Below, piece after piece: positions 1,294 through 62,204 of a stretch of 64,000 bases of DNA (its first letter is position 1; every line of letters starts with the position of its first letter). Both the position numbers and the translations under genes were made by a program. Under the pieces are notes generated by a model that did not search any database, had not been told where the DNA came from, and saw only the letters and a list, made by a program, of their open reading frames with translations. Source of the stretch: a virus; IMG/VR virus record IMGVR_UViG_3300050821_024094, positions 1-64,000 of that record, one strand, 5' to 3'.

Positions 1294-1319
1294 TGCTCCT
1301 GGGTGCTGTGGTAGGGGAA

Positions 1320-1349
1320 GAACGTGAGGCTGCGTTGAGCCTCACGTTC
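1320..1349. promoter_or_regulatory. Perfect 12-bp stem hairpin directly upstream (minus sense) of a CCCTACCAC site
   Basis: GAACGTGAGGCT-gcgttg-AGCCTCACGTTC. Confidence 0.6.
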
Positions 1350-1354
1350 GGGTC

Positions 1355-2083
1355 TTAGTTCGCGGGCTTCACGAAGGCGAAGAAGCGACGCCGGGGATAG
1401 ACTGCCTCGGCGACGCGATGGCCGTGATTGCCAGAGATGATGATCGGATCGCCGTTCGAGGTGATGCCGCTCACGATTCCGACGTGATTGCCACCAGGTC
1501 GTGAGGCAACCGCGATTGCGCCGATCTGTGGGCCTTTGAGGCGGATGCCCCAATCGGCGAAGCTGCTCGCGGCGCGCGAGCCAGTGCCCTCTCGTCCTGT
1601 TTTTCCGAGCACGAAGTTCATGAAGTCCGCGCACCACAACGAGCTAGGCAGACCGAGCTGCCCAGCCGTTTCACCCATGTACCGGCGCGCGGTCCGGACG
1701 AGCTCGTTGCTCTCATTCGTGGTTGCCACGGCCGCGTCGCGCGTCGAGCGGGCGACCGCACGACCAGCGCGGACCACCATGTTTCTGGCGCTCCGCTGGA
1801 TGCGAGCGCCGAGAGAGTAGTTTGATTCCGGGATCGGAGCGCTCCAGGTCCCGGTGTCGCGGTCGTACACCCCAGCGGGATTTGCGTTGCCGGAGGAAGC
1901 GAAGAAAGTTGGCAGGAACGACCGTGCCGATTGCTTCGCCGGCAATTCCCGGATGACGCGGTGGTAATACCGATGGTGATGAAGCTGGCCGTGTCGATGT
2001 CGATGAGGCCGGTTCGCAAAGGCTGAGGCGTTCGCCAGCACAAGCAAAGCAAGGCAGACGATCGCGGCTTGAGGCCGGATCAT
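1355..2083 (-). CDS. Secreted CHAP/NlpC-like peptidoglycan hydrolase
   Basis: Signal peptide; WCADFMN (catalytic Cys), GGNHVGIV (His), ISGN. Confidence 0.8.
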   Translation of the reverse strand: MIRPQAAIVCLALLVLANASAFANRPHRHRHGQLHHHRYYHRVIRELPAKQSARSFLPTFFASSGNANPAGVYDRDTGTWSAPIPESNYSLGARIQRSARNMVVRAGRAVARSTRDAAVATTNESNELVRTARRYMGETAGQLGLPSSLWCADFMNFVLGKTGREGTGSRAASSFADWGIRLKGPQIGAIAVASRPGGNHVGIVSGITSNGDPIIISGNHGHRVAEAVYPRRRFFAFVKPAN

Positions 2084-2122
2084 TTGGACTCCTGGATTGT
2101 GAAGGGGAGCGGAGGGTAGAAA

Positions 2123-2218
2123 TCAGTTCGCGGCGAGAACGGAGATGGTCCATTGCACGATCACGATCGCGCAAAGGACCAGCACCGCCCGACTGATGCG
2201 GCGTTCGAGCTTGGTCAT
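2123..2218 (-). CDS. 31-aa single-TM peptide in the lysis cassette (not in ORF track)
   Basis: Hand translation MTKLERRISRAVLVLCAIVIVQWTISVLAAN; starts right after the stop of the upstream gene. Confidence 0.5.
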   Translation of the reverse strand: MTKLERRISRAVLVLCAIVIVQWTISVLAAN

Positions 2219-2219
2219 T

Positions 2220-2501
2220 TCAATTCCCGAGTTTTTGCTTCCCCCAGGCATAGATGCCCGTGACAGCAGCGATCGAGGCGCCGACGACGGAGCGCATAAG
2301 CCAAGCTTGCGTGCTTTCCAGCGTTTTGATGCGGTCCTGGAGCGGGCTGATCACCCGCGCCAGGTCGCTTTCAGACACGAAGCTTGCGAGCTGCTCCTTG
2401 ATGGTGAGCTGCTCGCGGGCGAACGTCTCCTGCCGCTCGTCGATCCGACTGAGTAGGACGAGCATTTTGACTTGCGGATCGTCGAGGCCGGCGTCGGACA
2501 T
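2220..2501 (-). CDS. Coiled-coil protein with C-terminal TM (lysis accessory)
   Basis: Hydrophobic C-terminus; next to the holin. Confidence 0.55.
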   Translation of the reverse strand: MSDAGLDDPQVKMLVLLSRIDERQETFAREQLTIKEQLASFVSESDLARVISPLQDRIKTLESTQAWLMRSVVGASIAAVTGIYAWGKQKLGN

Positions 2502-2503
2502 TG

Positions 2504-2971: not shown

Positions 2972-2974
2972 GCG

Positions 2975-3244
2975 TCACGCGGTCTTCGCGGCCGGAGCGG
3001 CCGGCTGACTTGGGTCAGCAACCGGAGCGGCCGGAGCAACAGCAGCCGAGGCGGCAGGTGCGGCCGGGGCCTGTGTCGCGGCGTTGGTAAGAGTCGCGAT
3101 CGAGCTGGCAACGGTGCTGTTGATGGCGGCGACCGTCGCTTCGGACGCGGCGAGCTTCGCCTTCACGGTGGCGTGCGCGAAGTGCCAGAACGTGCAGCCG
3201 CCAAAGAACGCGGCGAGGACGATGCCCAGGAGGATGAGTTCCAT
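2975..3244 (-). CDS. Small membrane protein with Ala/Pro tail (spanin candidate)
   Basis: N-terminal TM ending FFGGC; between endolysin and holin. Confidence 0.5.
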   Translation of the reverse strand: MELILLGIVLAAFFGGCTFWHFAHATVKAKLAASEATVAAINSTVASSIATLTNAATQAPAAPAASAAVAPAAPVADPSQPAAPAAKTA

Positions 3245-3287
3245 GTGAATCCTTTCTCAGTGGTAGGGATGACTGCCGGGTGCTCGG

Positions 3288-3464: not shown

Positions 3465-3466
3465 GG

Positions 3467-4216: not shown

Positions 4217-4240
4217 GAAACCTCGGATTTTGTGTAGTTG

Positions 4241-30490: not shown

Positions 30491-30564
30491 TGGAGCGGGG
30501 AGCTGGAATTGAACCAGCACGTTCCGGCTGGAGACCAGGTGCTCTACCGTTGAGCTATCCCCGC
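30491..30564 (-). tRNA. tRNA-Gly(TCC)-like gene with atypical anticodon loop
   Basis: 74 nt; acceptor stem GCGGGGA/TCCCCGC, U73, encoded CCA, D-arm GCTC/GAGC, T-arm GCTGG-TTCAATT-CCAGC. Confidence 0.85.
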
Positions 30565-37079: not shown

Positions 37080-37351
37080 CAGAAGCCATCCCGGAAGGGA
37101 GCACCGTGGAGCTCCATGCAGTGGACGCCGAGAGCAGTGACCTTGCGGATTTCGTGGAGAGACGGTTCGACGCCGCCCGCCTTACACCACGCTGCCCGCG
37201 CCTTGGCGAGATACTCCTCCATGCAGACGATGAACTCGCCGGGCGACATGGCCTTTTCGTCGTGGCGTGCGGCGTTGCCCTTCCCCGCGTCCTGATACAG
37301 ACGCTCACTGTCGACGGCAGAGTAGACGCGAGTGCGTGAGGCTTGCGGCAT
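37079..37351 (-). CDS. Possible MazG-like all-alpha NTP pyrophosphatase
   Basis: ER.YQD, EE, E..KV.A..V..ME pattern. Confidence 0.45.
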   Translation of the reverse strand: MPQASRTRVYSAVDSERLYQDAGKGNAARHDEKAMSPGEFIVCMEEYLAKARAAWCKAGGVEPSLHEIRKVTALGVHCMELHGAPFRDGF

Positions 37352-37481
37352 TGAGAGGTCTCCGTGTGGTAGGGAAGTGATTTGTTATGAGGGCACGCTT
37401 GCCACATGCGCGGGCGCACGCAAGATTAAATCGACGCGCGCGTCACGCTTTTCGAGTACTGTGACCGTTACAGGCAGAAAT

Positions 37482-39933: not shown

Positions 39934-40380
39934 TTAGGCGGCTTCGCAGAACATCTGCGCGCCGAACTGGAAGTTCCGGCAGGTGAGGTAGTTGCGCGAT
40001 CGGTCGCCGAACTTGGCATCCGACACGCTCTTGTCGATCGGGATCGCTTCGAGCCCTCGGATCACGAGCATGTCCTTCGTCCACAGATCGAGCGACGCCA
40101 TCGCTCCGCGCTTCACCCGCCCCGCCAGATGGGCATTGTTCGCCCAGTTATAGGGTTGGGCGACGCCACAGAAGTAGAGGATGTTCCCCTCGGGATAGGC
40201 GAGTTCGACATCGCGATTGATCGGTGACTTGAGGCCGAAGTTCTTGTCGAACTTTCCGACCAGGCAGCGAGCGCAGTGTACGTTTTCGTTGAACCCCTCG
40301 ACCGTCTTGAGCCAGAGATAGCGCCAGCCCCGCAAATGAAGGGCGTGCGAGCGAATGTGGTAGGAAACCCCGTCAGCCAT
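39934..40380 (-). CDS. Hypothetical Cys/His protein coupled to ParB-MTase
   Basis: HCARC, YFCG, NAHLA, CRNFQF. Confidence 0.65.
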   Translation of the reverse strand: MADGVSYHIRSHALHLRGWRYLWLKTVEGFNENVHCARCLVGKFDKNFGLKSPINRDVELAYPEGNILYFCGVAQPYNWANNAHLAGRVKRGAMASLDLWTKDMLVIRGLEAIPIDKSVSDAKFGDRSRNYLTCRNFQFGAQMFCEAA

Positions 40381-42476: not shown

Positions 42477-42508
42477 ACGAAAACACCTACCACACGGAGA
42501 CGACGACG

Positions 42509-47064: not shown

Positions 47065-47775
47065 TCAATCCGCCTCTAAAATATCCCCCAGGGCAATCTT
47101 ATCGATCAAAGTCGCGTCGTCATCGCTCGTGCGTGAACTATTCACACGTTTTGACACCGGCCACTTCTGCAACACGTCTTCGCCGGCCGGCTTCATCAGC
47201 GCGACGGCGTCGTTCGCGTCACCGTGTTCCCATTGCTCAAAGTCTTTGGCTTCGAGGATCACGGGCATGCGATCGTGGACTTCCGCAACGAACTTGTTCG
47301 GCACGGTGATGACCATCGTCGTCGACAACAGGTCGCTGCCGGCGTCCTTGTCTTTCCACTTCGACCACAAACCCGCGAACGTGATCGGATGCCCATCGCG
47401 CCGGGTGAAGTACCAAGGCTGCGGCTGCTTTACTCCGGTGGTGTGTTGCCATTCGTAATAGCCACTTGCCAGCATCAGGCAGCGACGATGCTTGAAGGAG
47501 TCTTTGAACATCGGCTTCGTCGCAACCGTTTCTGCGCGCGCGTTGAACGTCGCCATCTTCATTTCTTTGAGCGTCTTGTCCCACCAATACGGGATCAGCC
47601 CCCAGCGCATTGGGACAAGAGAGCGCTTGCCGTCAGTTGAGATCACGACGTCAACGGGCGTCGTCGGACAAATGTTGTAACGGGGCTGCGTATTGCGCGC
47701 CGGTGCGTCGAGGGTCAGCCGATACAGCCGGACAATCTCTTCCCAGGTCAGCTTGTAGGTGTACCGCCCACACAT
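47065..47775 (-). CDS. SOS response-associated peptidase (SRAP/YedK/HMCES family)
   Basis: MCGRY, YNI.PT, WGL.P.W, NARAET, YYEW, HDRMP, VNS. Confidence 0.95.
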   Translation of the reverse strand: MCGRYTYKLTWEEIVRLYRLTLDAPARNTQPRYNICPTTPVDVVISTDGKRSLVPMRWGLIPYWWDKTLKEMKMATFNARAETVATKPMFKDSFKHRRCLMLASGYYEWQHTTGVKQPQPWYFTRRDGHPITFAGLWSKWKDKDAGSDLLSTTMVITVPNKFVAEVHDRMPVILEAKDFEQWEHGDANDAVALMKPAGEDVLQKWPVSKRVNSSRTSDDDATLIDKIALGDILEAD

Positions 47776-47969: not shown

Positions 47970-48037
47970 CGCAGCGACAATGACTCTGACGACCAAAAAA
48001 AACGACTTCCCTACCACCCACCGCAACGGAGACGACA

Positions 48038-48220
48038 ATGAAGCCCATCACGGTGCGCCTCGCGCACAACCTTCTCCATGGCTGCCTGATACTCGACGGC
48101 ATCCGAATCCGCCGGCTGGCGGAGTTGCTCACGCTCAGCTTGACCGAGCGCAAAGCACTTATCGCCTACCTCGGTCTCGATGGGATCGAGCGCATCGCTG
48201 ACACCTTCGAGCTGGCTTGA
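48038..48220 (+). CDS. Hypothetical protein
   Basis: CCCTACCAC plus RBS GGAG upstream. Confidence 0.6.
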   Translation: MKPITVRLAHNLLHGCLILDGIRIRRLAELLTLSLTERKALIAYLGLDGIERIADTFELA

Positions 48221-48231
48221 GGGAGGCGACG

Positions 48232-48570
48232 ATGAGCGAGCAACAAGAGCCCACGTCATTCACCGTCGCGGTCTATCTGGTCGACCAAGTCTACGGCGGC
48301 CCAGAAGAAGGCGGCTGGTGGTTCCAAGCTGGAACGATCGTCGATCCGGCGTCACTCGACATCCCCTTCGAGATGGCAGCGCCGCGCGTGTTCAAGGACG
48401 AGGACGCGGCGACCGAACACGCCGACGCGGTCAACCTCGCACTCAAGAAGATAAACGCGGGGCGCCCGTCGCTGACCTCGGTTCTGTCCGAGGGGAGATA
48501 TTGGGCGCAAGTCCATCCCGGCTTCGTGCCGCCCGACCACTTCCCCGCAGTCACCCCGCACTACGAATAG
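48232..48570 (+). CDS. Hypothetical protein
   Basis: VY.VD..YGGPEEGGWW; ends PHYE. Confidence 0.7.
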   Translation: MSEQQEPTSFTVAVYLVDQVYGGPEEGGWWFQAGTIVDPASLDIPFEMAAPRVFKDEDAATEHADAVNLALKKINAGRPSLTSVLSEGRYWAQVHPGFVPPDHFPAVTPHYE

Positions 48571-48607
48571 CAGCCTTCCCTACCACCCGAGCAACGAGAG
48601 AAAAATC

Positions 48608-48985
48608 ATGAACATCAACATTGAAGTCCCGTCACAGCGCATCGCCGACATGATCATCGGTGCGGTCGAAGGCGGCTCCACCTATTGGGCCAGAAGCCTC
48701 GTACTCAAGTCGACGAAGATCGCCGACCGCGAGAGCCCCTGGTACGCCGACCCGCGCCTCTACGAAGACGAGACGCTGGAGCTCGAACTGATCGAGGACG
48801 AGCCGTCCGCGCCGAACCACGACGGCAAGTACACCATCAAATTCGCCGACTTCGCCAAGGGCCTCACCATCATGGCGCAGAAGCACGCCTGGCACTTCGG
48901 CAACATGATCAGCGAGAACGACGACGCGACGACCGCCGACGTGCTCCTGCAATGCATCGCGCTCGGCGAGCTGGTCTACGGCTGA
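48608..48985 (+). CDS. Hypothetical protein
   Basis: EGGS.YWA, DA..AD...Q....GE.VYG. Confidence 0.7.
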   Translation: MNINIEVPSQRIADMIIGAVEGGSTYWARSLVLKSTKIADRESPWYADPRLYEDETLELELIEDEPSAPNHDGKYTIKFADFAKGLTIMAQKHAWHFGNMISENDDATTADVLLQCIALGELVYG

Positions 48986-48992
48986 GGGCGCC

Positions 48993-49109
48993 ATGAAAGA
49001 GATCATCATTGGCATCCTGCTCACGTGGGGCGTCGTCTCTGCTCTGGCCTGTTGGGCAATGTGCCGCGTCGCCGCGATCGCAGACCGACAAATCGAAGAA
49101 GGGAATTGA
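48993..49109 (+). CDS. 38-aa single-TM peptide (not in ORF track)
   Basis: MKEIIIGILLTWGVVSALACWAMC...; RBS GAGG. Confidence 0.45.
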   Translation: MKEIIIGILLTWGVVSALACWAMCRVAAIADRQIEEGN

Positions 49110-49111
49110 CC

Positions 49112-49774
49112 ATGGCAGCCGAGAAACGACGCGCCTGCGGCTATCGAAAGGTCGGTGGCCTCTACCTCGTGAGCGATGGGCTTGGAGCGTCGTGCTGCAA
49201 GCTACCGATCATCCTTAAGACGTGTCCATGCTGCGGCAATGGCGTGAAGCAAGCGCGCGGCTGGACGTGGATTGATCCGAGTCCGTGGATCAAAGGCGAG
49301 TGCAAGTCGTGGAATGGCAAAAAATCGATGGCAGGCGGGTTTTGCCCGCTCGCTGATCCGCGCGTGCTGGGTCAGCGCGTCGGCCTCCTCTGGATCGGCG
49401 AGCAGTTCTACCCGACACCCGAGGCATTCGCCGAGGAAGCGAATGAGATGGGCATCTCGCGCCGCATCACGGCGGTCCCGCGCGGGTTCAAGGTCGGAGA
49501 GCATTGGGTGTTCCTCGCGCATCCGAAGCTGGAGCGCTCGATCAATCCGGACACGAAAGAGGCCGAGTGGGCGGGTGGCGTGTTCCGCGTCTTCAAGCCC
49601 ACGCGCATCGAGAAGATCATCACGGAGAGCCAGTCGAAGGACGAGATCGCGATGAAGCGGCTCGAGCTCCAGAAGATCACATCCGTCATCGTGCCCGACG
49701 ACGACAAGGACCACCAAGGGACCGTCTACGACAAAGACGAAGCGGACGGCGACCTATTCGCAGAGGAGAATTGA
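49112..49774 (+). CDS. Cys-rich hypothetical protein
   Basis: R.CG.RK.GG.YL, CPCCG, LWIG..FY, F..EA...G.SRR. Confidence 0.65.
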   Translation: MAAEKRRACGYRKVGGLYLVSDGLGASCCKLPIILKTCPCCGNGVKQARGWTWIDPSPWIKGECKSWNGKKSMAGGFCPLADPRVLGQRVGLLWIGEQFYPTPEAFAEEANEMGISRRITAVPRGFKVGEHWVFLAHPKLERSINPDTKEAEWAGGVFRVFKPTRIEKIITESQSKDEIAMKRLELQKITSVIVPDDDKDHQGTVYDKDEADGDLFAEEN

Positions 49775-49775
49775 C

Positions 49776-49988
49776 GTGACACCAGAACAAGTAAAGGGCC
49801 TGCGGATGATCTGCGATGGCATCATCGAAGCAATCAAAGCAGGTGGCCCGCTCGGAGCACCAGCAGGTGTGCTCTATGCGGCGTTGATGGGCGCGGGCTG
49901 CTCACTCGACCAATTCAACCAGATCATGTCTGGCCTGGTGCGAGCGGGCAAAGTGCGCAAGCGCGGCGACTGCTACCATGCAGTCTGA
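49776..49988 (+). CDS. Small winged-helix-like protein
   Basis: GAPAG.LYAALM, LV..G.V. Confidence 0.55.
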   Translation: MTPEQVKGLRMICDGIIEAIKAGGPLGAPAGVLYAALMGAGCSLDQFNQIMSGLVRAGKVRKRGDCYHAV

Positions 49989-50028
49989 CCCGCGTGCTAT
50001 GACTGCCCCTTTCGAGGGGCAGTCATTC

Positions 50029-50256
50029 ATGAGCCAGAACAAGCCGATGACCGGCGCGACGCTTCAGCGTTGGCGCAAGAAACGCAAACTGTCGGAACGC
50101 GGGGCCTGCCTGGTGCTCGGCCTTTCACGCGGCGCGCTTCGCAACTTCGAGGCAGCCGGCGCTCCGCTCTATATTGCGTTGGCATGTGCCGCACTCGACG
50201 CGAACCTCAGCCCTGTCGGCGTTCGCGGCAAACCGAAGTCTCGTACCCTTCGATAA
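50029..50256 (+). CDS. XRE-like HTH protein
   Basis: L..WRK...LS...A...LGLS......E, P..IALAC. Confidence 0.7.
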   Translation: MSQNKPMTGATLQRWRKKRKLSERGACLVLGLSRGALRNFEAAGAPLYIALACAALDANLSPVGVRGKPKSRTLR

Positions 50257-50311
50257 CCCACTGGAGTAACCGACGAAAACACAGAACGAGATTGACTGTC
50301 TACGCCCGGTG

Positions 50312-50329
50312 TGGTCCATATATGTACCA
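50312..50329. promoter_or_regulatory. 18-bp palindromic operator in promoter, copy 3
   Basis: TGGTCCATATATGTACCA; TTGACT at 50292. Confidence 0.7.
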
Positions 50330-50379
50330 AGCCAAGCCGACGCGGAAAACTGCGCGGCTCCCTACCACGGAGAAGACCA

Positions 50380-50769
50380 ATGAACATCCTCACAGGCGAG
50401 CGCCTTGCGCGTACCGCCCCGGTGCGCAAGCGCCGACCAGCCATCACCACCACCACTCCCGACGTCACCGAGTACGTCGTCCATTGGCGAACCTACACCG
50501 CGCGACAAGTCTGGCTCGCCGGCGCCGAGGTCTACGCTTGCAAGGACAAGATGCTTCGCGAGATTTACGCCGGCGCGGTGAACACCGTGCAGCGCGTCAT
50601 ATCCTACAACGCGGCCGAAGGATGGGCGCATGACGTGAGCGCAGACGTCGCCCAGGAGATCGCCGACCGCTTCAACTCGACGGGCGACTCCATCGAACGG
50701 TCGCTCATCAATTTCCTCCACGACCACCTCGGCGTCGAGTCGACGCTTGAGCTCAACACGGAGGAGTGA
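50380..50769 (+). CDS. Hypothetical protein
   Basis: CCCTACCAC-GGAG upstream. Confidence 0.6.
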   Translation: MNILTGERLARTAPVRKRRPAITTTTPDVTEYVVHWRTYTARQVWLAGAEVYACKDKMLREIYAGAVNTVQRVISYNAAEGWAHDVSADVAQEIADRFNSTGDSIERSLINFLHDHLGVESTLELNTEE

Positions 50770-50772
50770 GCG

Positions 50773-51012
50773 ATGGCCAAGAAGCTTTTCATCGCAGCCT
50801 TCTTCGTGGACGCAGAGCGGTTCGACGAGATGACCGGCGCCGGCTCGCCCCACAAGGACGACGTCATGGCCCTGCTTGAGAACCAGCTCGGCATGGACGG
50901 AGACGTCACAGACTTCGCCGTTTGGGATGGCACCGACAACACGGTCGTCCTGCTCAAAGAGATTGCCGACGCGATCAATGACTCGCGCCGTCACCGTTTC
51001 GAGGAGCACTGA
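50773..51012 (+). CDS. Acidic hypothetical protein
   Basis: RBS GGAG. Confidence 0.6.
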   Translation: MAKKLFIAAFFVDAERFDEMTGAGSPHKDDVMALLENQLGMDGDVTDFAVWDGTDNTVVLLKEIADAINDSRRHRFEEH

Positions 51013-51110
51013 CCATGCCTTGGGTCGCGCTCTTCCTCGGTTTCTGGGCCGGCGACACGGTTGCATAAATAAGAACTTCCCTACCACCGATAAGCAACGA
51101 GGAATTGAGA

Positions 51111-51284
51111 ATGAGTATCGGCGAAGAACAGCGACTCCGATCGGAGATCGCATTCATCGAACAGCGTTACGACGGCCACTACCCGAAGTCGATCTGGGCA
51201 GTCCTCGAAATCTACCAGCGCGAGCTGGCCGAATGCCTCGCCAAGAAGGACGCCGCTCCGAGCACTGGAGCTGCACAACAATAA
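51111..51284 (+). CDS. 57-aa hypothetical protein (not in ORF track)
   Basis: MSIGEEQRLRSEIAFIEQRY...; CCCTACCAC and GAGGA upstream. Confidence 0.55.
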   Translation: MSIGEEQRLRSEIAFIEQRYDGHYPKSIWAVLEIYQRELAECLAKKDAAPSTGAAQQ

Positions 51285-51349
51285 GCCACTGAGAACCGAG
51301 GAGCCGGATCAACCGGCCCTCTCCATCCCTACCACCAGGATCAATCCCC

Positions 51350-52894
51350 ATGCTCGATGTCACCACCGGCGCGCTCGCGCGCTGCAGCGAAGACGTCACT
51401 CAAGACCGGCCGACCGACACCGGTATTGTCCCGCGCGACACGGTCGAGACCATCGTGCGCAACCGCGACCGCGCATTGGAGCTCTACTGCCTCGCCCACC
51501 AGGCCCTGAACACCGCGAACGAAGCTGTCGCCGGAGCGGCAGGAGCAACACGTGACCTCTGCCCAGGAGAGAACCGTTACAACCACCATCTCAGCAGCGA
51601 GAAGGCCCATTGGCTCAAGCCAGGCCGAGTGCCGTCGCGCGAAGACTACATGGCGACCGCGCGCAAGATCACGGACACAGATGTCTGGTCGCACCTGATC
51701 GCGATCACCGACCTTGAGAAGCTCATGGATCGCAAGGCGAAGGACGAGTTCTCGCGGCAGCTTCAAGACGATCCGCCTGAGGTGACGGTCGACAACGTGT
51801 TCGCGACACTTGAGCACTTCATGGCGGACGCCGGCACCATCTTCCGGCGCGGCATCGCCAATTGCTTCTCCAGCCTCGATCGCCGGTTCAAGTCACACGA
51901 CGGTTTCAAGATCGGGAGCCGCGTGATCCTCACCCACATGTTCGATGGGTTTGGCCACATGAACTATCACCGCAACACCGAGGCGACGCTCATCGACATC
52001 GACCGCACGTTCCGCCTGCTCGACGGAAAGAAGGACTGCGACGTCTACACCGGCATCGTCGGCGCGCTGCGCAACGACCGCACGGGTTGGGGCGCTCGGC
52101 AGACCGAGACGCACTCTGACTACTTCAAGGTCGTCGGCTACATGAACGGCAACGCGCACATTTGGTTCAAGCGCGACGACCTGCTCGAGAAGGTCAACAA
52201 GATGCTCGCCGAATACTACGGCGAAACAATCGGCGACGGAAACGACCGCGACGATGGCGGACTGTTCACACCCAAGACGACGCTAGCGAAGCACTACGGC
52301 TTCTACCCGACGCCGGATGAAGCATCGAAGACGATCATCGACATGGCCGGGCTCTATCGAGAGAAGGGCATGCCTGCGCTCCGCATCCTCGAACCGTCCG
52401 CCGGCACCGGCAACCTCGCGCGGCGTTGCGTGCGAGGATACGGCGAAGGGCACGAGAGCGTGTCGTATCACGCTCGCGAGCGCATCGCATCCGAGCCCAA
52501 CCTGGTCGACTGTGTCGAGGTGCAGGCCAATCTCGCCAGCGACCTCAAGGCCGAGGGCATTTATCGGAAGGTCTACGCCCAGGACTTCCTCACGCTGCAA
52601 CCCGTCGGCCTCTACGACCGCGTGGTGATGAACCCGCCGTTCGATCGGGAGCGCGACATTGATCACGTCATGCACGCGCTCAACTTCCTCGCCGACGACG
52701 GCGTGTTGATCGCGATTATGTCGGCAGGCACCGAGTTCCGCGAGACGCGCAAGGCAACCGCCTTCCGCGCGTTGATGAAAAAAATGAACGCCCACTGGCG
52801 CGATCTGCCGGCCGGATCGTTCTCCTCCGTCGGCACGAACTGCAACACGATCGTGCTGAAGGTCAGCAAGAACGGCCGGCACTTCTATCACTGA
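51350..52894 (+). CDS. DUF4942-like domain fused to an amino-DNA methyltransferase
   Basis: FYPTP, LEPSAGTG, VMNPPF; N-terminal F.RG..N.F..L and NGN.HI.F. Confidence 0.85.
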   Translation: MLDVTTGALARCSEDVTQDRPTDTGIVPRDTVETIVRNRDRALELYCLAHQALNTANEAVAGAAGATRDLCPGENRYNHHLSSEKAHWLKPGRVPSREDYMATARKITDTDVWSHLIAITDLEKLMDRKAKDEFSRQLQDDPPEVTVDNVFATLEHFMADAGTIFRRGIANCFSSLDRRFKSHDGFKIGSRVILTHMFDGFGHMNYHRNTEATLIDIDRTFRLLDGKKDCDVYTGIVGALRNDRTGWGARQTETHSDYFKVVGYMNGNAHIWFKRDDLLEKVNKMLAEYYGETIGDGNDRDDGGLFTPKTTLAKHYGFYPTPDEASKTIIDMAGLYREKGMPALRILEPSAGTGNLARRCVRGYGEGHESVSYHARERIASEPNLVDCVEVQANLASDLKAEGIYRKVYAQDFLTLQPVGLYDRVVMNPPFDRERDIDHVMHALNFLADDGVLIAIMSAGTEFRETRKATAFRALMKKMNAHWRDLPAGSFSSVGTNCNTIVLKVSKNGRHFYH

Positions 52895-52934
52895 CTCAAG
52901 ATCTAACCATCCCTACCACCAGGAGCAGACAACG

Positions 52935-53279
52935 ATGGCACTCCCAGCGACATACCGACCACGCGAAGGCGACATCCTGATCCTGCACGCGAGGGTCAAG
53001 CACAGCTTCACAGGCAGCGACGACGGGCTGTACGTCGAGATCGAAGGTCACTACAGCACGCCGTGCCTTCCACCGGAGAGTTTCGCAGGTGTCCATCGCC
53101 TCGGCTTCGAGGTTGGTGACTACGTTTGGCACGTCGACCAGCAAGCACACGCCACCGTGCTCGCGATCAACGGCAACCAAGCTTGGATCAAGTGGCAGAT
53201 CGGCGGGTCCACCATGGTCATTGCCATGACTGACCTAGAGCGCAGCGCGCGCCCGGAGCAAGCGGAGGCCGCGGAATGA
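52935..53279 (+). CDS. Hypothetical protein
   Basis: CCCTACCAC-C-AGGAG upstream. Confidence 0.6.
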   Translation: MALPATYRPREGDILILHARVKHSFTGSDDGLYVEIEGHYSTPCLPPESFAGVHRLGFEVGDYVWHVDQQAHATVLAINGNQAWIKWQIGGSTMVIAMTDLERSARPEQAEAAE

Positions 53280-54124
53280 ACACGCTCAAGACGACGCTGC
53301 TCCTGACCGCAATGATGGCAGCGTTCCTCGCCATCGGTAATTTGTTTGCCGACACCGCCGGCGCGGTGGTCGGCTTCATCGCCGCCATCCTGTTCGGTGC
53401 GCACACCTACTGGTACGGGCTTCAGAACGCCGTGCGCACGCATCAAGCCAAGCCCGCCGACTTCGCCCGCAAGCGAGAGCGACAGTTGATCGAGCTGGTC
53501 AACGAGCTCGCGAGAAACGCAGGCATCCCGACGCCTCGCGTCTTCGTGTTCGACAGCGCCCAGCCGAATGCGTTTGCCGCCGGGCGCGGACCGAGTCATT
53601 CCGCGATCATCGTCTCGACCGGGCTACTGGCCTGCCTCGATTGGAACGAAATCGCCGGCGTGATCGCGCACGAGCAGGCGCATATCAAGAACCGCGACGC
53701 GCTCACGATGACGGTTGCCTCTGGCCTGGCCGGCGTGATCGCCTTCCTTGCGGGGACCATCGCCATGCTCGGGCTGGCCAACCGCCGGGGCGGCGGGATC
53801 GGTGCGATCGTGTTCGGCGCCATCATGGCGCTTGGGGCGCTTGTGCTCCAAGCCATGCTCGGCCGGTCACGAGAGTATGTCGCCGACCGTGATGGCGCAG
53901 CGATCTGCGGTCACCCACTTTGGATCGCCAGGGCATTGCGCCGCATGAGCGGAGGAACGAAGCAGGTCAATCATGCTGCGGAGAGCAACCCGGCTCTATC
54001 GGCCCTCTACTTCGTGAACCCTCTGTCCGGGGGTTGGGTGGCGAGGATGTTCTCGACTCACCCGCCCGTTGAGAAGAGAATCAGACGACTGGAGCGAATG
54101 ACCGAACACGGAGGGACTAAGTGA
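53276..54124 (+). CDS. htpX: HtpX-like M48 membrane zinc protease
   Basis: PNAFA.GR, AHEQAH, SREY.AD, FSTHPP..RI.RL. Confidence 0.88.
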   Translation: MNTLKTTLLLTAMMAAFLAIGNLFADTAGAVVGFIAAILFGAHTYWYGLQNAVRTHQAKPADFARKRERQLIELVNELARNAGIPTPRVFVFDSAQPNAFAAGRGPSHSAIIVSTGLLACLDWNEIAGVIAHEQAHIKNRDALTMTVASGLAGVIAFLAGTIAMLGLANRRGGGIGAIVFGAIMALGALVLQAMLGRSREYVADRDGAAICGHPLWIARALRRMSGGTKQVNHAAESNPALSALYFVNPLSGGWVARMFSTHPPVEKRIRRLERMTEHGGTK

Positions 54125-54330
54125 AGCTCGCAGACGTTGACGTCCAAGACCTCATCACAGCGCTCCGCGATGAACGCAGTGTCGGTATCAGCGCAGCGCG
54201 GGAAGAACATCGGAAGCCGACGGACGCAGAAGAGATCACTTTCTGCGTCTTAAGGGCCCTAGAGTGCGCACTAGCAGCGGCGATTTCGCGGCGAGAGACA
54301 GAAGTTTACGACCCTACGTTGGGGGCTTGA
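54121..54330 (+). CDS. Hypothetical protein
   Basis: RBS GGAGG. Confidence 0.5.
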   Translation: MKLADVDVQDLITALRDERSVGISAAREEHRKPTDAEEITFCVLRALECALAAAISRRETEVYDPTLGA

Positions 54331-54433
54331 AAAAGAACCGGCCAGAACCCGAGGGCTCTGGCCGGTCTAGTTGGCAAATGCTTCCCTACCACAGGAGCAA
54401 CGAAGACGTGTCACAGGGACACGCGCCCTTCGT
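54330..54433 (-). ncRNA. Predicted ~104-nt trans-acting sRNA antisense to CCCTACCAC sites
   Basis: 5' hairpin, seed hairpin with loop UGUGGUAG, terminator stem with UUCUUUUU tail; promoter upstream. Confidence 0.7.
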
Positions 54434-54440
54434 AGCCCCG

Positions 54441-54469
54441 AACATGGATCAGGAAGCGGTGAATCGCAA
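54441..54469 (-). promoter_or_regulatory. Predicted sigma70-type promoter of the sRNA
   Basis: TTGCGA (54469-54464), 17-nt spacer, CATGTT (54446-54441). Confidence 0.55.
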
Positions 54470-54857
54470 GATGGCGCCTGCCCTAAATGTTAACGCCAGT
54501 GCCGCGACCAGGTCCGAGTGCAGAGCTTGCATTCGACCCGTTCAATCAGAACCTCCCGGCTAGTGCTTAGGCCGATGACGTCCGTCTCCGCCCCAAGCGG
54601 GCAGATGCAAGGGACGGCGCGGGCCTCGGAGACTTTGGCGGCCTTATCAACCGGCCGCTCGGCGGTGAGAACATCACATTCGGAGATCATGGTTTGGCCT
54701 GGAGGTTGCCCAGGCACAGATGCGCGTCCTCGCGCGCGCACGCGCGAGAGATGACCGATCGGAATGTGTCTGGAAATGCGAAACGCAAACGGGCCCCACC
54801 TGGGGGCCCGCGCAAGTTCCGCCGAATCTATTTATTTGTTAGCACGGTTGAGCAAGG

Positions 54858-55469
54858 CTAGCCAAGTGACATGAGACGCGCTTCGAGCGCCGCCGCCTCC
54901 AGGCCGTGACTTGCGAGAGCCGCATCGATCTGATCGTCAGCAGGCATCACCGCTTTGAGCTTGTGCGCGATCGCCACCATCTGGAGATCGCGCCGCTCAT
55001 AGACCGAGTTCCGGTGAAGGCCGAGTGAGCGAGCAATTTGCTGCCCCTCCTTCCCGGCCGCCATGCCGCAAATGATCTGATAGTCGCGGCGTCGGTTTTT
55101 CCCGACCAGGAGCTTGGGGAAGACGTCGAAGATGACGTGCATGCGCTGCACGTCCCTCGGCGTCGGCTGAGCGGTCCGGAGCAGAGAATCATTGCTCTGG
55201 TGCCCTGCCTCGATCGCGGCGAGCTCGGTGCGATAGGCTTCCATTCGCTCCTCTTGCGTGCGCGTAAATTCCGGCCAGAGAGACCGCATGGAGTAGAGCA
55301 ATGCGGCCTCCGGATCGGGGAGCTTCTTCATCGTCGTCATCGCCCGCTGGAGGACGTAGAAGACCAGATCGGTGGGTCTCACCCTTTCCTTGCCCTCGGC
55401 GACGAGAGCTTGGAGAGCATCCCTGAAAGCCAGGTGCAGGATCTCGGGGTAGTCCTTCTCCCCTGCCAT
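54858..55469 (-). CDS. Probable late transcription regulator (Q-position HTH protein)
   Basis: Last early-operon gene; IARSLGLHRNSV HTH; start re-called at MAGEKDY. Confidence 0.5.
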   Translation of the reverse strand: MAGEKDYPEILHLAFRDALQALVAEGKERVRPTDLVFYVLQRAMTTMKKLPDPEAALLYSMRSLWPEFTRTQEERMEAYRTELAAIEAGHQSNDSLLRTAQPTPRDVQRMHVIFDVFPKLLVGKNRRRDYQIICGMAAGKEGQQIARSLGLHRNSVYERRDLQMVAIAHKLKAVMPADDQIDAALASHGLEAAALEARLMSLG

Positions 55470-55792
55470 CACACCACCAGATCGTCTTCGGCCGGCAACG
55501 ATAGCTCGAGCCGCGCACTGGAGCGCTGCACAAGGTAGATCGCCTCCATCAGGTCGGGAGAGCGATCCTGGATCATGAAAACCTCGCCGCGTTCGTGCGC
55601 CAGACACACTTCGACCGCGAGAGCCTGGAGCACGATGCGCTGGTCGCCGGGCAGGTTGGAGAACTCGAGACTCTTGTCGCCGGCGAGGTTGCCTTGGTGG
55701 TAGATCGCGTAATCGCCGGCCTTCGCCATACGCAAGAAGACCTTGAACTCGTCCGCAGTGGTGACCGTGGTGGGTTTTTTCTTGGTGCTCAT
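55469..55792 (-). CDS. Hypothetical protein
   Basis: GD...YH.G.LA.D, V...Q.R; TGATG overlap with next gene. Confidence 0.6.
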   Translation of the reverse strand: MSTKKKPTTVTTADEFKVFLRMAKAGDYAIYHQGNLAGDKSLEFSNLPGDQRIVLQALAVEVCLAHERGEVFMIQDRSPDLMEAIYLVQRSSARLELSLPAEDDLVV

Positions 55793-55845
55793 TGGTCGAT
55801 GTCTCCGTGGTGGTAGGGATTGTGTTGTGTGTTTTTTGTGAGAGC

Positions 55846-56304
55846 TCAGAAGGGGATTTCGTCGTCGAGCTCGTCGCGACGAGACGTCTGCGGACCATCT
55901 GCCGGCGGAGGAGTGCCGGCGTCCGCCGGGCGATTGCCCTTGTTTTGGTCCCAGGCTTTGCAGCGGATGATTTGCAGCTCGGATTTGAACGGCCGCAGCA
56001 CGACCTCGGTCGCGTAGCGTTTGCCACCACCCTGGTCTTCCCAAGAGCGGGTCTCGAGCTGGCCCACGATCATGATCTGATCGCCCTTGGCGAGGTACTG
56101 TTCGATGACCTTCACCAGGCCATCGGCCCAGACGACGACGCGGTGCCACTGCGTCTTCTCCTTGCGCTCGCCCGTGCTCTTGTCCTTCCAGCTTTCCGAG
56201 GTGGCGATCGAGAGCGTCGCGAGCTTCGCACCGTCGGCGAGAGCTTTGACTTCGGGGTCCTGGCCGAGATTGCCGAGCAGGATGACTTTGTTCATTGCAG
56301 CCAT
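55846..56304 (-). CDS. ssb: Single-stranded DNA-binding protein
   Basis: NKVILLGNLGQDPE, WHRVV, DDEIPF. Confidence 0.97.
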   Translation of the reverse strand: MAAMNKVILLGNLGQDPEVKALADGAKLATLSIATSESWKDKSTGERKEKTQWHRVVVWADGLVKVIEQYLAKGDQIMIVGQLETRSWEDQGGGKRYATEVVLRPFKSELQIIRCKAWDQNKGNRPADAGTPPPADGPQTSRRDELDDEIPF

Positions 56305-56319
56305 GTGGTAGGTCTCCGT

Positions 56320-59836: not shown

Positions 59837-59842
59837 GAGCGC

Positions 59843-60346
59843 TCACCTCGCCTTCGGATGGCGATACGCGATGCGGGCATGGAACGTGCAGTAGGGCTTG
59901 CACTCGCCCTCACCCGCCGCATTGCCGCAGAAAGCGAAGCCGTCCTCGAGCGGATCTCCGAGCGGGAAATGACATTTGATCGAGGAGAGCTCGATGATGG
60001 AGCAGTTAAGCTCGGGCATCGGCGATGCGACATCGACTGCATCGTAGAAAGCCGGCCGCACACGCCGCTCATAGGCACGCGCAGTGGAGCGACGCACACG
60101 TGCCTCTCTCGGTTTGCGCGAGACAACGAGCAGGAGACGGTGCGCCTTGCCGATGCAGGCGTTCCGCGTCAGTACGCCACCGTGCTCCTCGTTGATCCGC
60201 TCGGCGATCAGCGAGAAAGAGATGCCCTCGGAAATGAGCGCCTTAAGCATTTCGGTCCGCTCGGCGGTCCAGGTCGTATTGTTGCGACCGGCGGGCTTGT
60301 GGACCGGGGTGGCGTACTGCGGCGCGACCATGACGTGCATGTTCAT
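59843..60346 (-). CDS. gcrA: GcrA-like cell-cycle regulator
   Basis: WT.ER.E.LK, TRNA.IGK.HRL, C.FP.GDP, FCG, PYC..H..IAY. Confidence 0.88.
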   Translation of the reverse strand: MNMHVMVAPQYATPVHKPAGRNNTTWTAERTEMLKALISEGISFSLIAERINEEHGGVLTRNACIGKAHRLLLVVSRKPREARVRRSTARAYERRVRPAFYDAVDVASPMPELNCSIIELSSIKCHFPLGDPLEDGFAFCGNAAGEGECKPYCTFHARIAYRHPKAR

Positions 60347-60825
60347 ACGAACGCTCTCCTGGCTTGACGGGCGCGGTACCACGCGAGAAGCGCGGCCTCG
60401 GCGAGGTTGTGGTCTTTCTTGAAAGCAAACAGCGAAGCGCGCTGCGGAAACATCTCGATCGCGCGCTGACGGCTGAGCTCGCCGTCCTTGGTCAGGCCGA
60501 GTGCCTTCTTCCAAACGCGGGGCTCAGCCTTGAAGAGTGGGATGCCGAACAGCATGACGGTCGCGCGCAGTGATCCGTTGGCGTCGCCGAAGCGAAACGT
60601 CGAGGAGAGGCCCTGCCCCGGCATTGCGCCGACGCGCTCCAGGATGGCCTCGGTCGGTCGCTGCATCTGAAGCCACGCCCACATCGCGTTGACGTCGACG
60701 TAGCGCTTGGAGCCCTCCCCGATCACCGGGACGCGGATTGCGCTGACGTCGTTGGTGTCAGGCGCGTACACCGCGAGCCCTCCTTCAAGTCCGGGGTCGA
60801 TGCCGAGGATGCGAGGATCGCTCAT
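60343..60825 (-). CDS. RuvC-like Holliday junction resolvase
   Basis: ILGIDPG, LERV..MP.QG, P..WK, AEAALL. Confidence 0.8.
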   Translation of the reverse strand: MSDPRILGIDPGLEGGLAVYAPDTNDVSAIRVPVIGEGSKRYVDVNAMWAWLQMQRPTEAILERVGAMPGQGLSSTFRFGDANGSLRATVMLFGIPLFKAEPRVWKKALGLTKDGELSRQRAIEMFPQRASLFAFKKDHNLAEAALLAWYRARQARRAFV

Positions 60826-61052
60826 TGACTGCCTTTGGTGATCTGATCGTTGAGCCTGCCGAGGATCGCGAGTGCTTCTCGCGGTCCGTGCCTGTCAGCA
60901 ATGAAGAGGACGATCGCCTCGACCGCGGAGGTCGCCGTCCGGAGACAGCGGTCTTCACCTTGCTTTTCAGTGAGCTTGCGGATCGCCTCGACGAACTTGG
61001 CCACCTCCTTGCCTTCCGGCTCGAAGGTGGGTTCGCCCCAGAAGCGGCTCAC
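60822..61052 (-). CDS. Hypothetical protein
   Basis: Coupled ORF. Confidence 0.55.
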   Translation of the reverse strand: MSRFWGEPTFEPEGKEVAKFVEAIRKLTEKQGEDRCLRTATSAVEAIVLFIADRHGPREALAILGRLNDQITKGSQ

Positions 61053-61055
61053 GAC

Positions 61056-61640
61056 TTAGAGCCTCCGGTGCGCGTGCTCCCCCATCGGGGGCGGCGGCTT
61101 GAAGGGCATGTCGATGTCGTGAAGGATCAGATCGACGCTGGCGTAGAGATCCTTGAGCGAGCCATCGTTGTGAATGACGTAGTCGCCCTGGATGTCGTGC
61201 CGCTCGCTTTCGTGATTGGCGTGAGCCGTGGTGGTACCGTCCCTCACGATCTGGATGATCTTGCCGGCGCGCTGGCGGACCGCCTCTGCTTCGTTGGGGA
61301 AGCGGACGTCGTCGGCAACGATCCAGTACCGAAAGAACGAGTCGACGCGGGCATTCCAGATGTTGGTCCAGATGTCCCCGCCGATTTGATCACGGCCCCA
61401 CTCGGTCCCGATCGTGATCATCGCGAAGCGCGGGCTCTTGCCGCAAAGCAGCTTGCACGACTGATCCTTGAGCGAGCCTTCGATCTGGTCCTCCGTGAGC
61501 CCGATGGCGCGCAGCATGTCCTTGAGCGGGTCAGCGAACTTCACGACCTTGAAGCCGTGCATGCGCGTGAGATAGCGGGCGACCTCTGACTTTCCGCAGC
61601 CGGCGCGACCGTGCAGGCCGATGATGGCGGGATCACGCAT
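61056..61640 (-). CDS. Deoxynucleoside monophosphate kinase
   Basis: IIGL.G.AG.GKS, FADPLK, GTEWGR, DVRFPNE, H.SE. Confidence 0.9.
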   Translation of the reverse strand: MRDPAIIGLHGRAGCGKSEVARYLTRMHGFKVVKFADPLKDMLRAIGLTEDQIEGSLKDQSCKLLCGKSPRFAMITIGTEWGRDQIGGDIWTNIWNARVDSFFRYWIVADDVRFPNEAEAVRQRAGKIIQIVRDGTTTAHANHESERHDIQGDYVIHNDGSLKDLYASVDLILHDIDMPFKPPPPMGEHAHRRL

Positions 61641-62121
61641 AGCGCTGCGCTCCAGCACACAGCGGCTTCGGTTGAGGCGAGCCAGTGCGGTTGACGTGGG
61701 ACTGGATGCCGCGATGAACGCCGGAATGATCGAGGAGATTGAGGAAGCCCGCGATGTGAGCCAGGCTCCAGCCGGTGTCGCGACGGATCAGGTACATAAG
61801 CTCCTGACGCGCGGTCGTGACCGGGAGACGCTTGCTATAGCCCTTGATGACGTGTTCCGGGATGGCGTGGCGCGTGCAGACGTCCTCCGTATGGTGGCGA
61901 GCGATCGCCGGCCAATGATGCCGGATACTCGGGGAGAGCGTCGCGGGAAGCGGAGTGATGGCGCCTTTGACTGGCGCTGTCGCCAGTTCCCGGCTCGCCG
62001 GCGGGGCCTGAGTGTCTTTCTTCGCAGTGAAGGCGGAACCAGCCGCCGCCATACGGGCTTTGACATCTCGGTAGCCGCGCACGAGATCGCGGCCCGAGCT
62101 GGGCTCGGTGTTCAAGTTCAT
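61633..62121 (-). CDS. DnaA C-terminal-like HTH protein
   Basis: ARQ..MYL.R..T..SL..IA......DHS.V..G. Confidence 0.7.
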   Translation of the reverse strand: MNLNTEPSSGRDLVRGYRDVKARMAAAGSAFTAKKDTQAPPASRELATAPVKGAITPLPATLSPSIRHHWPAIARHHTEDVCTRHAIPEHVIKGYSKRLPVTTARQELMYLIRRDTGWSLAHIAGFLNLLDHSGVHRGIQSHVNRTGSPQPKPLCAGAQRYA

Positions 62122-62204
62122 GTGGTAGGGTCTCTGTTAGATTTTATTTGGAGGGCGGCGTGGCCGGTTTATCCGACCACGCCGTAGTTCGAAGGGCTCG
62201 TCGT

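Follow-up and report, generated by a model that had tools for sequence, protein, structure and literature searches.

Short repeated sequences placed immediately before start codons have been described in Cluster K mycobacteriophages, where start-associated sequences (SAS) occur in 11-19 copies per genome, lie a few nucleotides before start codons (mostly ATG) in one orientation, are confined to non-structural genes, are essentially absent from the host, and are kept across subclusters in front of unrelated genes (PMC3203893). Their function has remained unknown (PMC11373665; PMC12699233). In enterobacteria, the small RNAs GcvB and DapZ use a G/U-rich seed to pair with C/A-rich sequences immediately upstream of or within the ribosome-binding sites of many mRNAs, and the C/A element can itself enhance translation (PMC3879156). 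In phage T4, the RegA protein turns down translation of many early mRNAs by binding their initiation regions (PMC3014915), whereas the stoperators of Cluster A mycobacteriophages such as L5 are asymmetric DNA sites for the repressor, present in many copies in short intergenic spaces and oriented with transcription. Here, we describe a nine-letter tag, CCCTACCAC, placed before the starts of non-structural genes in an uncultured soil prophage. As in Cluster K, the tag is short, asymmetric and start-associated, but it is accompanied by a candidate small RNA that carries its exact mirror image.

Results

A nine-letter tag precedes start codons outside the structural module

We examined a window of 64,000 nt (positions 1 to 64,000 of IMG/VR record IMGVR_UViG_3300050821_024094), which is part of a 74.8-kb provirus record. 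The exact 9-mer CCCTACCAC was found 12 times in the window, whereas 100 dinucleotide-preserving shuffles gave a mean of 0.12 and a maximum of 2 copies. A sequence-only reading had listed the same 12 copies, but its estimate of about one chance copy per window was too generous to chance. Two 8-mers at 42486(+) and 56305(-) were also confirmed, as was an in-gene copy with one mismatch. The whole record contained 17 exact copies, five of them beyond the window at 64368, 64713, 67095, 68677 and 70828. Fifteen copies were located in gene sense 0-23 nt before an ATG or GTG that opens an ORF of at least 40 codons, next to the Shine-Dalgarno (SD) sequence (Table 1). There were two exceptions: copy 64368 lies in a 5' leader about 50 nt before the next start, and copy 54384 has no credible gene on the plus strand. 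Three one-mismatch copies were also located before starts.

No exact copy was found antisense to a gene or deep inside a coding sequence. Copies 64713, 67095 and 70828 overlap only the last codons of the upstream gene, and copies in such positions keep their spacing to the next start. Notably, the structural module from about 3.5 to 36 kb, which contains the sheath, capsid and portal genes, has no copy, and the copies cluster at 42-71 kb. The hairpins directly upstream of three copies correspond to inverted repeats visible in the sequence. A weaker match suggested by the sequence-only reading at 25986(+) agrees with the tag at only 7 of 9 bases, lies on the strand opposite to the local genes, and was not convincing. 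The small ORF 51111-51284, which that reading had flagged from the motif, showed only modest coding statistics (log-likelihood ratio 2.6, GC3 0.67) and had no homologue in the related phages.

Table 1. Tag copies and features of the candidate small RNA locus in the 64,000-nt window.
Position	Strand	Feature	Associated gene	Distance to start	Remarks
1308..1316	-	Tag copy	1-1293(-)	14 nt to ATG	12-bp hairpin directly upstream
3260..3268	-	Tag copy	2975-3244(-), small hydrophobic protein	15 nt to ATG	
37366..37374	-	Tag copy	37079-37351(-)	14 nt to ATG	
40357..40365	-	One-mismatch copy, TCCTACCAC	39934-40380(-)		Inside codons 6-8; status uncertain, may be chance
42485..42493	+	One-mismatch copy, ACCTACCAC	42509-43450(+), ParB-like		Followed by ACGGAGA
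48009..48017	+	Tag copy	48038-48220(+)	20 nt to ATG	
48578..48586	+	Tag copy	48608-48985(+)	21 nt to ATG	
50360..50368	+	Tag copy	50380-50769(+)	11 nt to ATG	Abuts GGAG; hairpin directly upstream
51079..51087	+	Tag copy	51111-51284(+), candidate small ORF	23 nt to ATG	
51327..51335	+	Tag copy	51350-52894(+), DUF4942	14 nt to ATG	Hairpin directly upstream
52911..52919	+	Tag copy	52935-53279(+)	15 nt to ATG	
54330..54436	-	Candidate small RNA, about 105 nt			5' hairpin, seed, A/U-rich linker, terminator; folds at -54.4 kcal/mol, z = -5.4
54336..54367	-	Intrinsic terminator			14-bp stem followed by CUUUUU; top-scoring terminator in 47-64 kb; U-tract on the minus strand only
54384..54392	-	Mirror copy, GUGGUAGGG			Proposed seed; CUCCU (anti-SD) on the 5' side, AAG on the 3' side
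54441..54469	-	Promoter-like sequence			TTGCGA-N17-CATGTT
55810..55818	-	Tag copy	55469-55792(-)	17 nt to ATG	
56305..56313	-	One-mismatch copy, ACCTACCAC	55846-56304(-), SSB		Between the SD GGAG and the ATG
62122..62130	-	Tag copy	61633-62121(-)	Abuts ATG	

The tag recurs in other phages but is not a host feature

Next, we searched for the tag in other phages. It was strongly enriched in at least 12 other IMG/VR phage contigs (3-20 copies each), and most of those that were retrieved share almost no DNA with this phage. Across eight phage genomes retrieved in full there were 86 copies, of which 75 have a start that opens an ORF of at least 40 codons within 35 nt. The commonest spacing was 10-15 nt, and 67 of the starts were ATG. 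Many of the compared genomes are related to each other, so these counts are not independent events, and we estimate about four to six independent lineages.

In contrast, the tag was not enriched at host genes. The one named host, Pseudaminobacter (the cultured type strain Pseudaminobacter salicylatoxidans DSM 6986, which contains a prophage of this group), has 8 copies in 4.7 Mb outside the prophage contig, mostly in-frame CCC-TAC-CAC codons, and other alphaproteobacterial genomes have 2-21 copies each. Of 401 genomes of the order of Pseudaminobacter, only the Pseudaminobacter genome has more than one CCCTACCACGGAG. The tag has no special match to the host 16S rRNA. These comparisons concern the host of a related prophage; the host of the phage studied here is unknown. 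The sequence-only reading, which had called the motif start-associated, always in gene sense and not explained by chance, and had flagged copy 54384 as a small RNA template, was supported. It could not see that the tag and its mirror recur in many phages that are mostly unrelated to this one.

Mirror copies lie next to terminators

The plus-strand GTG ORF after copy 54384 has non-coding statistics and overlaps a minus-strand ORF that is conserved in the related phage G012. On the minus strand the copy reads CUCCU-GUGGUAGGG-AAG inside the candidate small RNA unit of Table 1. Comparable loci were found in several genomes: 54384 in the present phage (G000), 47491 and 46087 in phage genome G006, 16328 in G010, 3138 in G012, 36754 in G021, 17568 in G022 (one mismatch), and 19430 and 24267 in G023 all read GUGGUAGGG directly 5' of a hairpin of -20 kcal/mol or stronger plus a U-run. 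By comparison, only 0.2-0.4% of random strand positions have such a terminator within 62 nt. In total, seven of the eight fully retrieved genomes and three further contigs (L289, L293 and L303) have one or two mirror copies directly 5' of a terminator, whereas the mirror locus of G020 lacks a clear U-tract.

The architecture of the unit is conserved while its sequence is not. G000 and G012 carry it at syntenic positions, where only the promoter-like pair TTGCGA-N17-CATNTT (CATCTT in G012, with the same 17-nt spacing), CUGUGGUAGGGA and the terminator fold are kept, although the surrounding sequence has diverged. Most of the other units have promoter-like pairs of their own 35-65 nt upstream, namely TTGCGA-17-CATCAA, TTGCTT-17-TAGATT, TTGCCT-17/18-TAGGTA and TTGACC-17-AATATC, and their 5' hairpins differ. 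The -10 hexamers are weak, however, and an E. coli-type promoter scan did not report them. In one lineage, designated B, the two hairpins that flank the mirror differ in sequence between phages, but the mirror itself is kept. Apart from the mismatch in G022, the seed was invariant across lineages.

We then tested whether complementarity extends beyond the 9-mer. The flanks of the G000 seed pair with its own 15 targets at a mean of -30.6 kcal/mol, against -25.5 for shuffled flanks, and 0 of 300 shuffles did as well; for G012, 5 of 300 shuffles did as well. In lineage B, the flanks of the mirror copies add no complementarity beyond what their composition gives. The predicted G000 duplexes ranged from -21.6 to -40.5 kcal/mol, and 14 of 16 reach into the SD. 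In the minimum-energy fold of the G000 RNA, part of the seed sits in a weak 7-bp helix, and the seed would be buried in a long helix if transcription started further upstream. An Rfam search gave only a tRNA above the gathering threshold in the window and nothing significant at 54.2-54.9 kb, including no match to the C4 family (RF01695).

Discussion

We consider it somewhat more likely than not that CCCUACCAC acts on the mRNA as a G-free, C/A-rich tag, placed immediately 5' of (rarely 3' of) the SD of about 20 early, replication and accessory genes, and that it is paired by the phage small RNA. The segment CUCCU-GUGGUAGGG-AAG is the exact complement of the tag plus an anti-SD, and pairing would cover the tag and, in most targets, the SD. 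That would block 30S binding and turn the tagged genes down together, which could serve as an early-to-late shut-off or as a fail-safe in the lysogen. That the RNA is made, that it pairs with the tag, and that the effect is repression rather than activation are inferred; no transcript has been seen and the only public runs that hold this DNA are soil metagenome DNA runs.

Alternatively, the tag might be read by a protein, either a phage or host RNA-binding protein or the ribosome itself, as a translational enhancer or as an operator like the sites bound by RegA, in which case the mirror copies next to terminators would be unrelated to its function. Exact conservation of the 9-mer across phages that share almost no DNA suits a common protein reader, as do its G-free, C/A-rich composition, which resembles known enhancer elements (PMC3879156), the lack of flank complementarity in lineage B, and the ParB-like and DUF4942 proteins shared by all lineages. 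We nevertheless regard this reading as unlikely. No RNA-binding family (Hfq, ProQ/FinO, CsrA, S1, KH or cold-shock) appeared among 25 of the 35 families matched for 86 G000 proteins, the cultured Rhizobium phage with the closest DUF4942 homologue has no tag, and the tag is not used at host genes. This reading also leaves unexplained why the non-start copies are mirror copies with a terminator and a promoter-like pair. Also unlikely is a small RNA that pairs with the tag to activate or stabilize the tagged mRNAs, by opening leader structures or by 5'-3' pairing in cis where the mirror lies in the 3' UTR of the same operon. In lineage B one mirror copy does lie in the 3' UTR of the parB-like gene, at the end of the operon that carries the tags, some tags sit between an upstream strand and an SD that can pair with each other (CUCUCC...GGAGAG and GGUCC...GGACC), and many tags follow hairpins. 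However, most tagged leaders show no structure that sequesters the SD, and both the predicted duplexes and the anti-SD in the G000 and G012 seeds predict occlusion.

Least likely, in our view, is a DNA site, either an asymmetric repressor site that blocks elongation, like the stoperators, or a core element of a phage-specific promoter before each tagged gene. The motif is asymmetric with one orientation relative to transcription, the phage is temperate with an S24-type repressor at 63108-63875, and some copies lie just downstream of operator-like palindromes. Yet the spacing is tied to the SD and start codon and not to any -35-like element, no conserved upstream box is common to all copies, and copies recur before consecutive genes within operons and inside the tails of upstream genes. 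Moreover, separate palindromic operators already exist, and a DNA site does not predict a mirror copy framed by a promoter-like pair and a terminator.

If the favored interpretation is confirmed, a phage would control about a fifth of its genes at the level of translation with one small RNA, a mode of global phage gene control that we did not find in the literature we could search and that would give a simple handle for switching sets of phage genes on or off. More tentatively, a family of phage "master" small RNAs might govern a phage-wide translational regulon through a frozen 9-nt address shared by otherwise unrelated alphaproteobacterial temperate phages. Gene cassettes could then move between phages and stay regulated, and the RNA of a resident prophage could silence the early genes of any incoming phage that uses the same address, giving RNA-based immunity across phage types. 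The same logic would explain the Cluster K SAS elements.

Comparison with known systems

The SAS of Cluster K mycobacteriophages are the closest published relative of the tag. The SAS consensus GGGATAGGAGCCC contains the SD itself, whereas the tag described here is separate from the SD and G-free, and the host phylum differs (Actinobacteria for SAS, Alphaproteobacteria here). A single reverse-oriented copy that is not at a gene start, as in the Cluster K type, was found at G000 54384, with equivalents in G006, G010, G012 and G023. No trans factor has been published for SAS, whereas here the opposite-orientation copy lies in a unit framed by a promoter-like pair and a terminator. In phage Anaya we found the reverse SAS in a 385-nt gap between gp96 and gp97, and its complement appears to lie in a hairpin loop, although this was judged by eye, without folding, and is a lead only.

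GcvB and DapZ are host-encoded, with degenerate targets in cellular transporter mRNAs, whereas the RNA proposed here is phage-encoded and its targets carry an exact 9-mer in the phage's own genes; there is no sequence or Rfam relationship. In their 3'-UTR-type relatives, as here, the seed sits close to an intrinsic terminator. The c4 antisense RNA of phages P1/P7 and the CI RNA of satellite P4 probably pair, like the proposed RNA, with short repeated target boxes in the phage's own transcripts, occluding a ribosome-binding site or causing termination as part of lysis-lysogeny control, but they appear to act on two sites in a single operon, compared with about 20 sites across the genome in both transcription directions here. 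RegA is a protein with loose sequence specificity, in contrast to the exact 9-nt match of the proposed RNA. Finally, L5 stoperators occur in both genome arms (discussed in PMC3203893) and are not locked to the SD and start codon, whereas the tag is absent from the structural module.

Occurrence and placement of the motif

The 9-mer CCCTACCAC occurs 12 times in the 64-kb window, and the sequence-only reading had placed all 12 copies at the correct coordinates and on the correct strands. Dinucleotide-preserving shuffles gave a mean of 0.12 copies and a maximum of 2, so chance or base composition was rejected as an explanation. Notably, the reversed control sequence occurs 6 times in this phage (hereafter G000), all inside coding sequence. 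The 8-mer CCTACCAC adds three further sites. The window is the first 64 kb of a 74,777-bp IMG/VR record classed as a provirus, and the whole record holds 17 exact copies, of which the five beyond the window are all on the plus strand.

Read in the orientation of the motif, nearly every copy is followed by an SD-like GGAG, GAGG or AGGA and then an ATG, and distances from the motif end to the start are 0-23 nt. In two cases the motif lies between the SD and the ATG or abuts the ATG, whereas three copies fall in the last codons of the upstream gene and still keep their spacing to the next start. The extended consensus has U at position -1 in 14 of 16 copies and C at position -3 in 10 of 16. No exact copy is antisense to a gene or deep within one. 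One copy beyond the window, at 64368-64376, is not next to a start but sits in a leader about 50 nt upstream of the next ORF (64426), downstream of a TTGACG-N17-TAGCGT promoter-like pair just after the repressor gene. A weaker site proposed in the sequence-only reading at 25986 matches only 7 of 9 bases on the wrong strand and was not counted. The small ORF that the same reading had flagged from an adjacent tag has only modest coding statistics (log-likelihood ratio 2.6, GC3 0.67) and no homologue in the seven other phages. The coordinates of these and other features are collected in the table below.

Coordinates of tag copies, mirror loci and associated features
Genome	Position	Strand	Feature
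G000	30491-30564	-	Single phage tRNA-Gly(UCC)
G000	40357	-	8-mer CCTACCAC
G000	42486	+	8-mer CCTACCAC
G000	47065-47775		SRAP peptidase
G000	51111-51284	+	Small ORF flagged by a tag
G000	53276-54124		M48 peptidase
G000	54384	-	Mirror copy
G000	54490-54741	-	Small Cys-rich ORF just upstream of the candidate sRNA promoter
G000	56305	-	8-mer CCTACCAC; motif between SD and ATG or abutting ATG
G000	62122		Tag copy; motif between SD and ATG or abutting ATG
G000	64368-64376	+	Tag copy in a leader
G000	64713	+	Tag copy in the last codons of the upstream gene
G000	67095	+	Tag copy in the last codons of the upstream gene
G000	68677	+	Tag copy
G000	70828	+	Tag copy in the last codons of the upstream gene
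G006	46087		Mirror locus
G006	47491		Mirror locus; second mirror copy of lineage B
G010	16328		Mirror locus; second mirror copy of lineage B
G012	3138		Mirror locus
G012	7856, 13368, 15195, 17343		Examples for the gcTAAGTTATTGAT box and palindromes near tag copies
G021	12640		Example for the gcTAAGTTATTGAT box and palindromes near tag copies
G021	36754		Mirror locus
G022	17568		Mirror locus (UUGGUAGGG, one mismatch); second mirror copy of lineage B
G023	19430		Mirror locus; second mirror copy of lineage B
G023	24267		Mirror locus
Anaya (JF704106)	about 59870	-	Single reverse-oriented SAS, GGGATAGGAGGCC

Genomic context of the tagged genes

The window encodes a tail sheath, a large terminase, a portal and a major capsid protein, as well as a primase-helicase, SSB, a ParB-like protein, a DUF4942 protein and an S24-type repressor. 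The phage also encodes a DNA polymerase III beta clamp, RecT, an SRAP peptidase and an M48 peptidase. GcrA-like and GapR-like proteins and a holin of the gene-transfer-agent type point to an alphaproteobacterial host. No close relatives by DNA were found in cultured phages, and the closest terminases, at 43-47% identity, are in prophages of Methylobacterium, Rhizobium and Brevundimonas. Among public runs, those that hold the DNA are soil-metagenome DNA runs, and no RNA run was listed. Tagged genes lie at 42-71 kb and comprise early, replication and accessory genes in both transcription directions, together with three at 1.3, 3.3 and 37.4 kb, whereas the structural module from about 3.5 to 36 kb has none.

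The tag is shared by other phages and not by the hosts searched

Next, pattern scans of IMG/VR were used to find other contigs with many copies of the tag, and the counts per contig are shown in the table below. In most of these the unit is CCCTACCACGGAG-N6-8-ATG. By BLASTN, G000 shares 6.5 kb with G012 and about 1-1.5 kb or less with the others. G006, G010, G022 and G023 form one lineage (lineage B), G021 is a distant relative of that lineage, and G020 stands apart. An additional scan of IMG/VR for TCCTGTGGTAGGGA returned mostly random hits and added one possible lineage, L439. In G010, G012, G021 and G022, a box gcTAAGTTATTGAT lies 12-19 nt upstream of some tag copies, and palindromes of the type GTAACC-N4-6-GGTTAC lie next to others. 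These are probably -10 regions and operators of early promoters, so the tag sits near the 5' end of those mRNAs.

Copies of the tag in other IMG/VR contigs
Contig	Length or type	Copies
G006	70 kb	7
G010	67.5 kb	12
G012	39.6 kb fragment	20
G020	74.2 kb	4
G021	63.3 kb	5
G022	75.9 kb	9
G023	70 kb	12
G029, G030, G032, G033	fragments	3-6 each
G011	5.3-kb fragment	2

G021 is an entire contig of Pseudaminobacter salicylatoxidans DSM 6986. That genome has 5 copies in the 63-kb contig and 8 in the remaining 4.7 Mb. Most of the 8 are in-frame Pro-Tyr-His codons, and none had an Rfam hit, which speaks against a host stable RNA carrying the mirror. Nine other alphaproteobacterial genomes have 2-21 copies each, fewer than the reversed control sequence, and of 401 genomes sampled from the order of that host, only this one has more than one CCCTACCACGGAG. 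Hence, the same enrichment at host genes was not found, and a host-wide element was rejected for the genomes searched, although the host of G000 itself is not known. Pairing of the tag with 16S rRNA was likewise rejected: the best match in the Pseudaminobacter 16S is 8 pairs, including wobble pairs, and its energy is no better than that of 14% of shuffled motifs. A link to the DUF4942 methyltransferase was also rejected, as Rhizobium phage RHph_TM3_3_3, whose homologue is 55% identical, has no tag.

Copies away from gene starts

Across the eight fully retrieved genomes, 75 of 86 copies have a start within 35 nt. The rest fall into a pattern: read on the opposite strand, they are GUGGUAGGG followed within a few to about 20 nt by a strong hairpin and a U-run. 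In G000 this is the 54384 copy, where the minus strand reads ...CGUUGCUCCU-GUGGUAGGG-AAGCAUUUGCCAACUAGA-, then a 14-bp stem, then CUUUUU. This terminator is the best-scoring one in 47-64 kb, and its U-tract is on the minus strand only. The plus-strand GTG ORF that would follow this copy has non-coding statistics and overlaps a small Cys-rich minus-strand ORF, which has a homologue in G012 (37% identity over 75 aa) and no Pfam family. Equivalent loci are present in G012, G006, G010, G022, G023 and G021 and in three further contigs, L289, L293 and L303. In comparison, only 0.2-0.4% of random strand positions in these genomes are followed by such a terminator. No known RNA family was identified at the G000 locus, and the single phage tRNA-Gly(UCC) carries neither the tag nor its mirror.

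G000 and G012 carry the unit at syntenic positions, between the convergent M48-peptidase and SSB operons. Their alignment is diverged except for four features: the end of the small ORF, CTTGCGATTCA, a -10-like CATGTT or CATCTT exactly 17 nt after TTGCGA in both, and CTGTGGTAGGGA. The terminator is a hairpin in both phages but with unrelated sequence. Other lineages have their own promoter-like pairs 35-65 nt upstream of the mirror, namely TTGCGA-17-CATCAA (G020), TTGCTT-17-TAGATT (G021), TTGCCT-17/18-TAGGTA or TACGTA (lineage B) and TTGACC-17-AATATC (L289). Their 5' hairpins differ, and they share an extended seed YYCU-GUGGUAGGG-A. The predicted RNAs are about 85-107 nt and fold better than shuffles, with z from -3.5 to -5.4. 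Lineage B has a second mirror copy, which is single-stranded between two strong hairpins in the 3' UTR of its parB-like gene, a gene that itself starts with a tag. The hairpin sequences differ between phages while the mirror is kept; between lineages, hairpins are replaced rather than mutated and do not align.

Predicted pairing between the mirror and the tagged leaders

The 9-bp core alone gives about -17 kcal/mol. With the natural flanks, the G000 seed pairs with its 15 targets at a mean of -30.6 kcal/mol, against -25.5 for shuffled flanks (0 of 300 shuffles did as well). For G012, 5 of 300 shuffles did as well, whereas for lineage B the flanks add nothing beyond composition. In G000 the anti-SD CUCCU lies directly 5' of the mirror, and 14 of 16 predicted duplexes extend into the SD. 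G012's flank UUUUCU can pair with GGAGA through wobble pairs. This geometry predicts occlusion of the ribosome-binding site. Notably, many G000 tagged leaders, at 48009-52935 in the window and in the remainder of the record (64001-74777), share a second box, CAACGRRGA, at the SD (for example GCAACGGAGAC, TCAACGGAGAA, GCAACGAGAGAA). It is complementary to UCUUCGUUG, the 3' arm of the candidate sRNA's 5' hairpin, which gives a possible two-part pairing.

Possible mechanisms and relation to known elements

Taken together, the placement of the motif is confirmed and its reading as a start-associated element, with one copy as a candidate sRNA template, is supported. The best reading is an mRNA-level tag paired by a phage small RNA that turns the tagged genes down together, a mechanism that is inferred, in the absence of expression data, with moderate confidence. 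The tag may in addition be a C/A-rich enhancer, as for GcvB targets (PMC3879156), and activation rather than repression remains possible. Deep conservation of the 9-mer across lineages is expected if 10-20 targets freeze the seed and if cassettes are exchanged between phages, but it is also the main argument for a protein reader, the second-ranked rival. A DNA-level site, whether stoperator-like or a promoter core, fits the orientation bias; it does not fit the lock to the SD and start codon, the copies within operons, the absence from the structural module, or the mirror units.

A literature search for the 9-mer in either strand, as DNA or RNA, returned only unrelated primer and aptamer hits. 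Unchecked AI-written notes describe analogous tag-plus-mirror-RNA systems in several other phages, one of them a soil phage with CACCACCAC, and these are not counted as evidence here. The closest published phenomenon is the SAS of Cluster K mycobacteriophages. That study also notes a single opposite-orientation copy per genome and leaves open whether an RNA or a protein reads the sites (PMC3203893), and later papers still call the role undefined. In the Mycobacterium phage Anaya, we located the reverse SAS in a 385-nt non-coding gap between gp96 and gp97. Its complement on the gene-sense strand, as judged by eye and without folding, falls in the loop of a GCGCGG/CCGCGC hairpin, which is a lead and not a test. 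The arrangement described here is of particular interest because it recurs in independent lineages and offers an inferred mechanism for a long-unexplained class of phage elements. The present tag fails the sequence definition of SAS and belongs to another host phylum, so it differs from the Cluster K elements in both respects and is not a member of them.
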